Shown here piece by piece: positions 20,715 to 53,485 of a stretch of 64,000 bases of DNA (position 1 is the first letter of the stretch; each line of letters starts with the position of its first letter). This DNA is from Octopus vulgaris (lineage: Eukaryota). The DNA is taken from positions 44,764,001-44,828,000 of the forward strand of contig OX597825.1 in the NCBI GenBank assembly GCA_951406725.2. The letters are read 5' to 3'. The position numbers were made by a program, and so were the translations under genes. The notes beneath the pieces were generated by a model. The model was not told the origin of the DNA, did not search any database, and was given only the letters and a program-made list of their open reading frames with translations.

Positions 20715-20755
20715 CTGCATTGATAAAGGGCAACAACCCTGAAACATGTCTGCAG
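20715..20755 (+). ncRNA. Minimal type I hammerhead ribozyme, U3:A8 variant
   Basis: CTGCA-TTGATAA-AGGG(CAACAA)CCCT-GAAAC-AT-GTC-TGCAG; all three stems pair; GUC cleavage triplet. Confidence 0.85.
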
Positions 20756-20932
20756 ATGTCTGACTAGCAAGGTGAAGCGGCTGACCTCCCCTGTTCGAAG
20801 GTTGTAATATGGTAGTCTATAAATATAAGATTAAAGCTGTCGCTGATTAGCTAGCTATATGACACATGAACCTGTGTCCATTACAACCTTCGAACAGGGG
20901 AGGTGAGCCGCTTCACCTTGCTAGTCAGACAT

Positions 20933-20972
20933 CTCAGACACGTTCCAGGGTTGTTGCCCTTTATCAATGCAG
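20933..20972 (-). ncRNA. Inverted copy of the U3:A8 hammerhead, degenerate (GGAAC)
   Basis: Minus strand: CTGCA-TTGATAA-AGGG(CAACAA)CCCT-GGAAC-GT-GTC-TGAG. Confidence 0.65.
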
Positions 20973-21979
20973 CGTAGTCAGACCCGCAGGTGTCGCTACT
21001 GACCGTCTGTTCGAAGATTTTATTTACCTAGATACAGTGGAATACATCCACTGTTCGAAGGTTGTAATAGACGCAGGTTCGTGTGTCATATAGCTAGCTA
21101 GAGGCGATGGCCTCTTGGAGCTAATCAGCGACAGCTTTAGTGTTATATTTATAGACTACCATATTAGTATGGCGATAACTATTAATATCCAGTAACGCTG
21201 CCGTAATCTCCTTTAGAGAGACTTAGTAATTTTAATATTTCTATTATATATATATATATATCAGGAATTATATTCTCCTTGATTTGACAAGTCATCTGTT
21301 TACAAGCTGACCACAGACGGACACACAGACACGGGCTCCTATCAGCTGCCTGACCAACAAAATCAGCAGTTCTCTTTCTCTCTACCCGCTGCCTGACAGA
21401 CTCCCACACATACACAGGCGCGCACACACATACATGTAGGTAGGGTCCCACACCTATATAAGATAGCCTTAATTCTTAAAACAATCCGAACATTAACTTT
21501 AGTTATACAGAATATATTCACACCCTTTGGTTTTCAGTATTTCTTCCACTACCAGGGTTGACCGCAGTCTGACCTTGATTTATTCCAACGGACTTTTTCG
21601 TCGGCCTCCACCCCCCCCCCTGACGTCAACGCATATTGAGAGACAGTTTTGTGCTTTTTCATGGGCTCCTAAGGAGCGTTTTGTTCGAATACCTTGCTGC
21701 GCATTTGTTTTGGATTTTTAAATTCCTGGATTTTCCTGAAGAGAATGCTGCAAAATGGTCTCCTTATTCAATCCGAATTTGGAAATTTGCGGCCTTTGAA
21801 ACATGTGTAGAAAATAATAAAAGGAATTCTGTAGCATCTTCGTTCAGCTCCATTTCTTCCCTTCACTATATATATATATATATATATATATATATATATA
21901 TATAGGGTGGCGAGAATACTCGTTATAAATATCACCCCAGTGGCCTAGCATATATAAAAAGTCAATAGACAACATATTC

Positions 21980-22208
21980 GTATTTCAAAATAGAAAATTG
22001 CCCTTTAACAGGTAATTTTTACATGCTAGAAATAGCAGCCCAAACACAGCCAAAAGCCACAATTTTATAGCAAATTTCGAAGTAAAGGTTTTTATTTTTC
22101 ATTTACTTCCGAATTTGCTATAAAATTGTGGCTTTTGGCCGTGTTTGGCTGCTATTTCTAGAATGTAAAAATTACTTGTTAAAGGGTAATTTTCTATTTT
22201 GAAATACG
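21980..22208. repeat. Inverted repeat, ~107-bp arms with ~15-nt loop
   Basis: CGTATTTCAAAATAGAAAATT...CGAAGTAAA versus TTTACTTCCG...AATTTTCTATTTTGAAATACG. Confidence 0.9.
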
Positions 22209-22340
22209 TATATATATATATATATATATATATATATATATATATATATAAGCAAGGAAAAATTGTAAAAATGCAGAATGCTAAATTGAAAGAAAATTTT
22301 AATGAAATGAGAAATTCATAAAATATATAAATATATATTA

Positions 22341-49273: not shown

Positions 49274-50312
49274 TGTTACAAATCACCTGCCATCGCCCAA
49301 ACTCTTCGGAAAACCCGGGACCCTACCAAGTCGAGCGACGACGATCGACCGGCTCGATCGAACAGTGAACTCGCCACAGACTCAGAGAGAGAGAATTCGG
49401 TGGGGGAAGGCGGCAGCGAACTCGGCAACCGGCGACCGGAGAGGACAACAACAAACAAACAACAGCAGGAAGAGACACAAAGAGAGACGGCGGAAGGCAA
49501 TTGGCTACATTTAACAACAGTAGTTTATAACAATTATTACATCAAATACATCAAAGAAAATACGTGCAAGAAAACAAAGAAACAACAAATCAAAGCATGC
49601 AGGTACAATAACAGTTCAGAGACAACAGTTCAAATCACTTTAACGTTCACATTATAGTTCAGAGACAAATCAGTTCTACATTAACGATACAGTTCAAAGT
49701 TCTTTAAAGTCTTTCTCCTTCTTTCTTTTCAACAACTCTTTTCACAATGTCTTTACATAGTTCTTTCTTTTTCCTCTTTCCTTCTTTCTCTTTTTTCAAC
49801 ACATCAATTCTTTTACATTTCAACAATTCTTTTTCCTTCTTTAACACATATCAAAACATAAATAAACATACCGTTACGAGCTACTACAATGGCCTGTGCC
49901 CTCATACCGTAGTCCCTCTCTCTTAGCTCCTTAATCCTATGTGTACGTCCTTCTCCACGTTCTCGTTGCCTCTTGCCGTAATCTTATCTGCCTGTCCTCC
50001 TCTTTCACATTCACTGTCATTCTCTCGCTTGTCATCCCTCAGATTGTCTGTCTGTCTTTCTCAACTGACCGCCTCCGTATCACTCCCGTCTCTGGCCAGA
50101 ACTGCCGGCCGACTGTCCAACAGACTCACAGTTCCTGCCTTTTATAGGGTAGCTTCCTCGACCTCTCTTTGACCGGAACAAGGCCAAAGGTCTCCTCAAA
50201 ACTCATTAATCCTTCCAGAATCTGACGGAACAAAGGACAATAACTTTGTGTTCCAGACTACAACGAGCAAAGTAGGTCATAGCATTTGTTTCCCAAATTG
50301 ACCCCCATTACA
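49274..50312 (-). mobile_element. Probable solo LTR (~1.04 kb)
   Basis: TGT...ACA termini with ATAT on both flanks (TSD-compatible); TATA-like CTATAAAAGG on minus at ~50139-50148; non-coding. Confidence 0.65.
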
Positions 50313-51849
50313 ATATATATATATATATAAGGGAGATTACTACCTATGTGGACACCCTAAAGATAGAAGTAGATCCGCTAAGAATTGTTCTCTAGAAAAT
50401 TTAGCAAACACCAGAAACGTAAACGAGCAAGACAGATGAAAAGTAACAAAAATATAGATTAATCATAAACAATGTTTCACTATTAACAAATTACGTAATT
50501 TTACTTACGCAATTTATCTGTAGATCTTCAGGATCGTCCATACAAATATAATTTTCAGAACAATACACAGGATATCCGAACGAGGTCGAATATGTATGTA
50601 GTTCTACCTATTACACTTGTGGTTATTTTTCAAAAGTCCTCGTTTTGGCGCGCTAAATTACCGGAAATAATACTGCATAAAATAATTTACTGCAGTAGCT
50701 TTTGCCGGTTTGAGAACGTATTAATTTAAAATTAAAATTAAAATGAGGGTGAAAAACTCGGATATTAATTTGATAACATCAATTTAACACCAGTGGTCTA
50801 GCATATTAAAAATCTGAGGTTCGGTAAATAGTATTACATACATATAAGAGGGATTACCACCTATATTATATATATATGCAAACAAAATAGTATTATTACC
50901 GTGATATATAGCAATAATAAGGTGGCTAGCAAGTTCACACCTTTGCAGGCACAATATAAAGTAATTTAAGATTAGGTAGGGTATATAATACCGGTTGCTA
51001 TAATCAGAACCATTGCTCCAAAAACCACCATAAAATTACGATAACGATACACACGAGCAATGCAATGAACATTTCAGAAATAGGCTTTATACTGGTCTGT
51101 AAAGGTGTGAACTTCCTAGCCACCTTATCATATATTATATATAAACATATACATAAATATATACACATACATACACACAAACATATATATCTATATTCAA
51201 ATACATACATACATAGGCAGAAATATACTAAGACATACGCATATATATCTATACATATGCTCGTATATATTCTCATGGGTACAATATAGAAACATTCTAA
51301 TGCTAAAGTATACTTTTACGATCGCATACTTATATGCATAAACACACGATCATATACATACACAAGAACATCGATAGACCCGAAACACATAATCGTATTC
51401 ACATACACATACTTACTTAAGCACATATACGTTACTGTTCATTCACAAAATATATACGAACAAGGGACGTAATAACTTAAAATGTCGTTATCGAAACGAA
51501 CTATAAATTGTGAGAGAAGTTGTATAGAAAGACTGGGAGGGGGAAAGAAAGGAAGGATAAAACAAAGCAAAGAGAGAGAGGGAGAGAGAGGGAGAGGAAC
51601 GGGAAAATTGTAAATATAAAAAAATTCATGAAAAGAAAAGAAAGAAGGGGAGAATGGGAACATTCTGGGAAGTAAGATGGAAAAAAAAAGAAAAGAAAAT
51701 TTGCAGAAATTATAATTAGGTTATGGGAGTTCACACATACAGAAGGGCACACACACCTCAAAACATCTACAAACACAAACACACCATAACAAACTCAAAT
51801 ACGCACTAAGCATATATGCATCATTGCGCACACTGAAAATATACATACG

Positions 51850-53125
51850 TATTGGGTTGGCCGGAAATTTTGTGCCGATTTATAGAAGCTTACCTTTCGA
51901 CTTATTTTAGAACATGGTTGAGTCCATAAAATAGGATTTGACTACACCTCCATTTAGAGCACAGTTTAAGCTATCTTTTCTTGGAAGAAGGTTTATGTTC
52001 CTATAACCTGAGTTAATTCTGTAACCCTTTAAAATGGAAGATAAGAAAGTTCATTTTCGGCACTTGATGCTTTTCTTTTTCCGTAAAGGGAAAAATGCCT
52101 CACAAGTAACCAAAGACATATGCGCAGTTTATGGTGATGTTTTTTTTTTATCCGAAAGAACTGTACGAAAGTGGTTCGCAAGGTTCCGAGCTGGAGATTA
52201 TAGTCTTATTGATAAAGAGAGATCAGACAGACCATCCACTACAAATGATGACCAATTCAAGTCGTTAATTGAGAATAACCCACATTGCAACCCGAGAATT
52301 GGCAGAAAGCCTCAACCTTTCAAAATCCGTCGTTCATGAGCACCTAGTAAAGCTTGGGTACACAAATCGCTACGATGTTTGGGTACCACATGAGTTGAGT
52401 GAGAAGAATCTTTTGGATCGCATTTCCATCTGTGATTCGCTTTATAAACGGAATGAAAACGTGCCTTTTCTAAAGCAAATTGTGACATGGTGATGAGAAA
52501 TGGATTATCTACCGAAATGTTCAGAGAAAGCAATCCCGGAGTAAGTGACATGAGCCACCCTTAGCCACCCCAAAAGCGGGTCTTCTCCCTAAAAACGTCT
52601 TGCTTTGTGTCTGGTGGGATTGGAAAGGAATTCTGTACTATGAGCTTCTCCCAAGTAACCAGACAATCAATTCTGAAAAATATTGCACACAACTGGACGA
52701 GTTAAAAGTAGTAATTCAAGAGAAACATCCAGAATTGGCCAACAAGAAGGGTGTTGTTTTCCAACATGATAATGCAAGACAGCACGTTTCTTTGGGAACC
52801 AGACAAAATTGCTGCAGCTCAGCTGGGATGTGTTACCCTACCCTCCATATTAACCAGATATTGCTCCTTCGGATTTCCACTGCAGAATAGTCTTAATGGT
52901 AAAAATTTCAATTCCTTGGATGACGTAAAAAGATACCTTGATGAATTCTTTGCCATGAAACCACCTAAATTCTGGGAAGAGGGTATTTTCAAGTTAAAGG
53001 AAAGATGGAGACGCATTGTGCATCAAAATGGTTCATATCTGGTTGATTAAAAATGTAATGGCAAGTATTTATTGACCTTTTTCTTTCCTTTAAAAATCGG
53101 CACGAACTTTCCGGACAACCCAATA
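51850..53125 (+). mobile_element. Full-length mariner with TIRs and TA TSD, frameshifted transposase
   Basis: TA-TTGGGTTGGCCGGAAATTTTGTGCCGATTT ... AAATCGGCACGAACTTTCCGGACAACCCAA-TA; WVPHEL, DEKWI, HDNARQH. Confidence 0.96.
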
Positions 53126-53444
53126 TTATAACAAAAACGGATATATAAGAATATATATATACAGAAACCCATGTAGTAACGGAACTCTAGAAATGTAAGA
53201 TGGTTTCAAAGAAATCGGCTATACGTGTGTGTGTGTATGCATGTATGTATGCATGTATGTGTGTGTGTGTGTGTGTGTGTGTGTGTGTGTGTGTCTGTGT
53301 GTGTGTGTGTCTGTGTATGTGTTCCTTTTCAACCTTCTACATATATACATATGTAGAAGGTTGAAAAGGAACACATGAGTTGATATGTATAAGGAAGATA
53401 AGACAAGATAGAAAATGCTAAAATAATTTTATCATGAAGAACAT

Positions 53445-53485
53445 TTTAGTACCGTTTTCAGTCTTTGCGACTTTTTCAATTTAGA
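53445..53485 (-). ncRNA. Degenerate U3:A8 hammerhead-like motif
   Basis: Minus strand: TTGAAAA-AGTC(GCAAA)GACT-GAAAA-CG-GTA; stem I poor. Confidence 0.5.

Follow-up and report, generated by a model that had tools for sequence, protein, structure and literature searches.

Hammerhead ribozymes in which a U3-A8 pair replaces the canonical C3:G8 pair of the core have been described as a natural variant (Perreault 2011, PMC3088659), and minimal hammerheads of this form occur in the Cercyon Penelope-like elements (PLEs) of S. mansoni, with ~1,300 matches versus ~2,000 for the canonical core (Cervera and de la Pena 2014, PMC4209133). The stretch analyzed here, 64,000 nt of the Octopus vulgaris genome (contig OX597825.1 of assembly GCA_951406725.2, forward-strand positions 44,764,001 to 44,828,000; hereafter the window), contains U3:A8 hammerheads of type I on PLEs and on retrozymes of about 355 nt, together with a PLE-borne A6U core variant. 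As in Cercyon, the core covariation is found in pseudo-long terminal repeats (pLTRs), escapes the standard descriptor, and is present in single and opposite-strand copies; the proportion across the genome is also comparable, with ~20,700 U3:A8 and ~32,900 canonical motifs. Unlike in Cercyon, there are ~15-fold more copies, some families have a 6-8-nt palindrome and a very short stem II, the hosts carry a CX4CxxC linker, and U3:A8 is also found in retrozymes. We consider it probable that the U3:A8 hammerheads self-cleave, most likely as dimers joined through their palindromes, and release unit-length RNA, and that the folds of the A6U and U4C variants are under selection and cleave slowly or with the aid of a PLE protein.

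Three other described systems are relevant. The metazoan non-LTR (long terminal repeat) retrozymes (Cervera and de la Pena 2020, PMC7229834; 350-390 bp in Mytilus, and also found in the axolotl) are non-coding tandem units, here 353-362 nt, and share with the octopus units one type I hammerhead per unit, a 6-bp stem I, a 4-bp stem II, a palindromic stem III, a GC content of at most 50%, and a highly paired predicted circle. A U.U mismatch at the base of stem II (core 38429) is also found in axolotl HHR_Amex2 (PMC7229834). The octopus units differ in their U3:A8 core, which is absent from the main text of that study, in repeated switching to and from C3:G8, and in being mostly dispersed with inverted pieces; the circle is here a prediction. 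Among the core variants of Perreault 2011 (PMC3088659) are the same U3-A8, U4C in a viroid, and, at the position of A6U, the A6C of phage Bcep176. Those variants are described as rare, whereas A6U and U4C number ~25,000 and ~12,000 copies here and are fixed in lineages. The anole element Poseidon PAc (PMC11167929) is a PLE with a C-terminal endonuclease whose minimal pLTR hammerhead is protein-assisted; the pLTR motifs here are also minimal, but the core of Poseidon PAc is canonical, and the octopus elements are apparently of Neptune/Nematis type. Literature searches found no report of an A6U (CUGUNGA) hammerhead or of octopus retrozymes, although A6U may already have been published, in a paper or in supplementary data (e.g., Lunse et al. 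2017), and the main text of a 2026 octopus repeat annotation (PMC13282606) does not mention ribozymes. U3:A8 itself is thus known, and the genome census and the A6U lineage appear to be the new part.

The window was searched with a type I descriptor comprising stem I, N3-UGA-N7-N8-A9, stem II, GAAA, a palindromic stem III, and U-H. All five strict matches are U3:A8, compared with a mean of 0.03 (maximum 1) in 60 local dinucleotide shuffles, and allowing a bulge gives six, so that the above-chance frequency proposed in an initial annotation of this DNA is borne out. That annotation had listed nine TTGANAA sites, seven of which retain the type I layout, whereas two (20967 and 53479) are decayed. 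The retained U3:A8 sites have a Watson-Crick 3:8 pair within the 3-9 core, the GAAA, and U16.1-H17. One of them, 40150, was accepted by the exact pattern and passed no stem descriptor, and a tenth site was absent from the earlier list. The U3:A8 sites are as follows.

5622..5663, reverse strand: additional U3:A8 hammerhead, core 5658, palindrome altered at one position; a PLE endonuclease fragment (6998-7709, reverse strand) lies 1.3 kb upstream.
20715..20755, forward strand: type I U3:A8 hammerhead, core UUGAUAA at 20720, palindrome ACAUGU, with cleavage predicted after C20750; all 21 family A cores that matched read TTGATAA.
20933..20972, reverse strand: core 20967, an inverted and decayed copy of the motif at 20720 (family A), with A13G and a broken palindrome.
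22340..22381, reverse strand: AT-rich U3:A8 hammerhead, core 22376, palindrome AACCGGUU; strict descriptor match with a repeat family of its own.
23175..23219, reverse strand: type I U3:A8 hammerhead, core 23213, loop 2 CAAAUA, palindrome ACUGCAGU; within the family B insertion.
23346..23392, forward strand: type I U3:A8 hammerhead of family B, core 23353; its predicted dimer is a double hammerhead.
38423..38468, forward strand: type I U3:A8 hammerhead, core 38429, with palindrome ACCUAGGU and a stem II that starts with a U.U mismatch at its base; all 15 family C cores that matched read TTGATAA.
40112..40156, reverse strand: minimal U3:A8 hammerhead with ACCGGU, core 40150, stem II followed by a 2-nt bulge; remnant of a 3' pLTR from the PLE family found, with its reverse transcriptase ORF, at locus L221.
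48436..48474, reverse strand: minimal U3:A8 hammerhead in the 3' pLTR of a family D PLE, core 48467, 2-bp stem II, ACCGGU.
53445..53485, reverse strand: decayed U3:A8 hammerhead, core 53479, broken palindrome; pLTR remnant of a family seen with reverse transcriptase and endonuclease at locus L220.

CUGANGA descriptors miss these motifs, as had been suggested, and an Rfam scan of the window returned 104 matches at E<=1, none of them to a hammerhead family. Exact patterns gave ten U3:A8 matches (nine distinct, one probably by chance) against 0.67 expected, and no canonical match. About eight independent U3:A8 insertions between 5622 and 53485 exceed the genome rate more than 10-fold; the window was chosen by eye and is a local hot spot, and the initial figure of one motif per 5 kb does not carry over to the genome, where the U3:A8 density is 1 per 136 kb.

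The sites had been taken to lie in apparently unrelated repeats. They belong instead to one superfamily of 353-362-nt putative retrozymes and to the 3' pLTRs of Neptune/Nematis-type PLEs, the GC-richer sites 20720/20967, 23213/23353, and 38429 falling in retrozyme families A, B, and C, respectively. The PLE origin that the annotation had proposed is supported, the AT-rich sites 40150, 53479, and 48467 being PLE 3' ends. A further AT-rich site, 22376, has 1229 candidate family members. The retrozyme insertions, delimited by monomer BLAST, are:

20640..21247, forward and inverted pieces: family A insertion, monomer 362 nt, with tandem dimers at loci L004 and L006.
23007..23545, inverted pair: family B insertion, monomer 355-357 nt, with a tandem array of 10 hammerheads at locus L219.
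37995..38639, ~1.2 monomers and an inverted piece: family C insertion, monomer 356 nt.

A first look gave at least 2085 candidates for family A, at least 2500 for family B, and at least 1420 for family C, of which 40 were scored in each. Among 20 family A loci, shared sequence is limited to the repeat itself. Tandem copies consist of non-coding units of 353-362 nt (one deleted unit has 328), each with one type I hammerhead, in arrays of up to 10 hammerheads. Arrays of 4-10 units are found at loci L231 (C1:20001001-20006000), L233, L219, and L232, and those of L231 and L233 each comprise two oppositely oriented arms. Aligned over their full length, the units are 45-97% identical, and seven of eight monomers give highly paired predicted circles (z -3.7 to -9.7). 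By the tandem non-coding unit and this predicted self-pairing, families A, B, and C match the non-LTR retrozymes.

Families with the canonical C3:G8 core (L231, L233, and L236-L238) belong to the same superfamily, and family C (U:A) is 77% identical to families F and G (C:G). The 3:8 state changes twice on a tree of eight full monomers and three times on a 17-row tree that includes partial copies; these changes are forced by well-supported branches, in trees that retain the two core columns and have one long-branch row each. Across 11 retrozyme-type motifs, stems I and II are preserved through several pair types, with exceptions (a U.U, an A-C, and one bulged base) in three C:G families, and stem III is palindromic in all 11. 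No other sequence evidence speaks as strongly for selection on the 3:8 pair as this recurrent replacement of both its bases.

An alternative is that AT-rich DNA yields such motifs by chance, or that they are neutral relics. The background of the loose U:A descriptor is high (13 versus 7.5), U:A cores with an ACGT palindrome show no excess in the genome (2,897 versus 3,122), and most genomic copies are certainly dead insertions. However, the strict matches stand far above shuffles and group in repeat families. For the masters of these families this explanation is largely refuted, and overall we regard it as very improbable.

The family D site, 48467, lies ~150 nt 3' of a GIY-YIG fragment, in agreement with the initial annotation:

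48604..49011, reverse strand: GIY-YIG endonuclease fragment of a family D PLE (Pfam PF01541, E=0.0038, below cut-off), 86% identical to the open reading frame (ORF) at locus L224.

In family D, 14 of 15 aligned copies retain TTGAAAA, with stem I at 7 bp and stem II at 2 bp. At 40150 and 53479 the sequence corresponds to the 3' ends of PLE families that have ORFs for reverse transcriptase or for reverse transcriptase and GIY-YIG (L221 and L220). RVT_1 is present in L220, L221, and L241, and GIY-YIG is above cut-off in L220 and weak in L241. The hammerhead motif lies 140-1,960 nt downstream of the PLE ORF, the arrangement of PLEs with a C-terminal endonuclease, and an inverted 5'-truncated copy adjoins the insertion in L220, L221, L224, and L234, loci that were picked for opposite-strand motif pairs. 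A CX4CxxC linker precedes GIY-YIG in L220, L221, L224, and L241; since a CX2-5CxxC linker in this position marks the Neptune and Nematis clades (Craig 2021, PMC8557442), the U3:A8-bearing PLEs appear to be of Neptune/Nematis type. Their ORFs have ~50-65% mutual identity, which suggests one lineage, and 25-27% identity to the A6U element described below. Kinship was judged on pairwise identity only, because a 12-row protein tree, with no reference elements and a probably misaligned L241 slice, left the branching unresolved. Most PLE hammerhead copies are short remnants. In a random sample, PLE protein similarity was found within 1.5 kb upstream of 3 of 20 U3:A8 and 0 of 13 canonical pattern matches, with queries drawn mostly from U3:A8 families, and a long PLE ORF was present at 4 of 20 loci chosen for motif pairs.

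A census of 2.8 Gb in 227 contigs was made with exact patterns on both strands, with the reversed pattern as control. The counts are lower bounds, since decayed copies, long loops, and other palindromes escape, the control is not composition-matched, and A6U and U4C were counted with a 4-nt palindrome only. Besides the ACGT class given above, matches and controls for U3:A8 were 21,350/2,423 with a 6-nt palindrome, 4,755/3,177 with a further pattern, and 395/13 for the exact motif of 22376; for the canonical core they were 18,941/1,165, 5,457/1,103 with a 6-nt palindrome, and 11,598/819 with an 8-nt palindrome. The excess over control was 32,909 for canonical, 25,392 for A6U, 20,662 for U3:A8, and 11,885 for U4C cores, that is, 36%, 28%, 23%, and 13% of ~90,800 motifs. 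The large hidden class envisaged in the initial annotation is therefore real in that ~64% of the motifs are non-canonical, but U3:A8 makes up only 23% of them all and was published in 2011 and 2014.

The annotation had also called U3:A8 the dominant core. It does lead in the window and in the 6-nt palindrome class (21,350 versus 5,457), and some U:A families, such as those with AATT palindromes, escape exact patterns. One such family, with a 5-bp stem II (L112:6377 and L166:1589), is missed by GAAAC-based patterns. Against dominance in the genome stand the larger excesses of the canonical and A6U cores and the class counts in a random sample (A6U 14, canonical 8, U4C 8, U:A 7), which leave this claim hardly tenable. 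In 159 evenly spaced 10-kb stretches (1.59 Mb), the strict descriptor found 12 U:A cores versus 0.9 in shuffles and 10 C:G versus 0.2, with at most 2 for other combinations; the loose descriptor gave an excess of ~5 U:A versus ~18 C:G. With an ACCGGT palindrome, U:A accounts for 11,567 of 12,469 matches, C:G for 188, and two mismatched 3:8 states jointly for 714. The scarcity of mismatched combinations in both counts indicates that enrichment is specific to paired 3:8 states. An apparent excess of A3:G8 and A3:U8 in the sample was traced to one satellite locus, L083, where 84 units of ~50 bp with GAAACGT mimic hammerhead cores in structure-free counts. The 11,598 C3:G8 matches with 8-nt palindromes speak against an apparent association of long palindromes with U3:A8 and of short ones with C3:G8, which was abandoned.

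The initial annotation had noted canonical or near-canonical cores at 3816, 5184, 23702, and 46197. The first two form an inverted CUGAUGA pair, the third is decayed, and the last is an A6U motif 3' of the ORF of a young PLE:

3810..5265, both strands: inverted pair of canonical CUGAUGA motifs, cores 3889 (reverse) and 5189 (forward), with a long AT-rich loop 2.
23698..23760, reverse strand: decayed hammerhead-like motif, core 23756, with U4C and A14G.
46197..46234, reverse strand: A6U motif CUGUUGA, core 46229, 5-bp stem I, stem II GAGC/GCUC, palindrome ACGU.
46738..48210, reverse strand: 5'-truncated ORF of the young PLE with thumb, CX4CxxC linker, and GIY-YIG; homologous part 47086-47925.

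Of 18,667 candidate copies of the young PLE, all 150 that were scored are 99-100% identical and stop-free, with frames of ~800 aa, and the A6U motif recurs at 23 of 25 family loci. The very young PLE with its A6U motif is likely to be a still-active element. Genome-wide, CTGTNGA with an ACGT palindrome has 26,300 matches versus 908 in the control, and one stem II is common to 97 of the 100 matches listed. Among 37 A6U copies chosen at random by downstream sequence, the four bases at N7 number 9/7/11/10, whereas 34 copies have U6; when the 33 with a recognizable core are placed on a tree built from the flanks only, 11 changes are counted at N7, and 32 copies carry U6. With the exact motif around it, position 6 gives 15,598 matches as U and 596 as any of the other three bases; ~70% of the 100 of these listed are C, and this minority consists mostly of transitions, as decay following insertion would produce. 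Contigs of four public runs, three being large, show every alternative base below 3% at position 6, whereas N7 and H17 vary. The lineage of 46229 lacks the invariant A6 of the consensus core and has U6 fixed; G8, G12, A13, A14, and the palindrome are also fixed, and only N7 and H17 vary. N7 varies more than almost any flanking column and more than a mere lack of constraint would predict, possibly reflecting a mutation hot spot or diversifying pressure.

A U3.G8 wobble register for 46197 was ruled out: it breaks the 4-bp stem II, and the N7 variation fits the A6U register only. The idea that chance or neutrality produced this motif could take the form of protein coding, with a GTN valine codon fixing U6 and freeing N7. 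This was rejected, since the other four-fold degenerate third positions in that frame (U4, the loop U, C11.1, and G16.2) show conservation, and the A found at H17 in 25 of 36 copies usually creates a TAA stop.

The U4C class (CCGACGA) has 13,854 matches versus 1,969 in the control. It forms the sister group of canonical CTGACGA subfamilies that share its stem II (e.g., L029:2574, L041:2001, and L047:5179), and U4C is present in 13 of 24 sampled copies of the sister lineage to A6U. The CCGA lineage lacks the invariant U4 of the consensus. Both the A6U and U4C classes keep a hammerhead-like layout but depart from the consensus core.

In the proposed mechanism, transcripts of tandem retrozymes or of PLE pLTRs would pair two palindromic stems III into a double hammerhead, which would cut after H17 and free unit-length RNA from tandem or read-through transcripts. 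The retrozyme monomers released would form circles, and a PLE protein would reinsert these, a step to which the inverted truncated pieces point. In the case of A6U and U4C, the fold is probably kept under selection, and cleavage would be slow or would depend on aid from the PLE protein. U3:A8 mutants are active in vitro (Perreault 2011, PMC3088659). For A6U and U4C, a slow or assisted ribozyme is favored by a conservation pattern typical of working ribozymes, yet with low activity in mutagenesis, and by the precedent of protein-assisted PLE hammerheads.

Several points weigh against this account. A full double hammerhead was obtained in one of six dimer predictions (family B only), the predicted dimer of the A6U construct paired differently, and the AT-rich minimal motifs fold as monomers no better than shuffles (z 0.3 to 1.9). 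Retrozyme monomer H (z -1.7) is not more stable than its shuffles, and an autonomous partner for the retrozymes was not found. Minimal PLE hammerheads are reported to cleave weakly in vitro (Cervera 2014, PMC4209133), and for Poseidon PAc insertion in vitro is independent of cleavage and no RNA-seq reads end at the site (PMC11167929). A pairwise mutation scan gave low activity for all changes in the CUGA region but a G:C swap (Roberts 2023, PMC9901934), a result that weakens the case for A6U and U4C and does not favor U:A in the construct used. What the sequence itself shows is the type I layout, the grouping into repeat families with tandem and inverted copies, the placement 3' of ORFs for reverse transcriptase and GIY-YIG, and the recurrent change of the 3:8 pair; cleavage after H17, circularization of monomers, and mobilization of the retrozymes by a PLE protein are inferred. 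Family C and the A6U motif are matched in contigs of public runs (taken by guess to be RNA), which attest to presence only and are silent on ends or circles.

The main rival for A6U and U4C is that PLEs keep the hammerhead fold as a non-catalytic RNA structure, such as a protein-binding or priming site, so that these changes are tolerated because cleavage is dispensable or harmful. Few PLEs here are as successful as the A6U lineage, although its core change should impair catalysis. Catalytic mutants were without effect on insertion in vitro (PMC11167929), and Naiad PLEs thrive without canonical hammerheads (Craig 2021, PMC8557442). The fixation of G8, G12, A13, A14, and the palindrome, with variation confined to N7 and H17, is however the pattern of working ribozymes, and in the retrozymes the 3:8 pair is switched by double changes. 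A purely structural role is possible but doubtful. A bolder proposal, put forward only tentatively, is that the A6U core works in nature as a hammerhead, with dimerization or the PLE protein restoring its activity, and is the largest single hammerhead lineage, carried by an active PLE; A6C, at the same position, cleaves at under 0.1 per min (Perreault 2011, PMC3088659).

The rest of the window is rich in repeats, with LINE, mariner, and PLE fragments. A degenerate, divergent PLE with reverse transcriptase to endonuclease fragments occupies 15825-17713 (reverse strand), with no hammerhead found within 2.2 kb downstream, and just upstream of it an ORF fragment at 18226-18603 (reverse strand) has a weak Ulp1/Peptidase_C48 match (E=0.0097, below cut-off). 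A long, near-perfect hairpin at 2460-2574, in a LINE-like ORF fragment, has the best Rfam score, below the gathering threshold, and is probably an inverted duplication. A SINE-like repeat at 498-984 is arranged in tandem 184-bp units.

As first written, the U3:A8 finding would be modest, since the variant is known; it is the census that carries the weight. About two-thirds of ~91,000 hammerhead motifs in this genome are invisible to CUGANGA descriptors, and published counts in other animal genomes may accordingly be far too low. One genome holds a natural allelic series of C3:G8, U3:A8, U4C, and A6U cores in young elements with intact ORFs, which makes directly testable whether PLE hammerheads must cleave or whether the fold serves otherwise. 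The young PLE family (46197-48210 on the reverse strand; L240-L264) is a good candidate for an active element with an A6U motif. If A6U does prove to be a working core, most of this animal's hammerheads would use cores that mutagenesis finds nearly dead and that all standard searches have overlooked.

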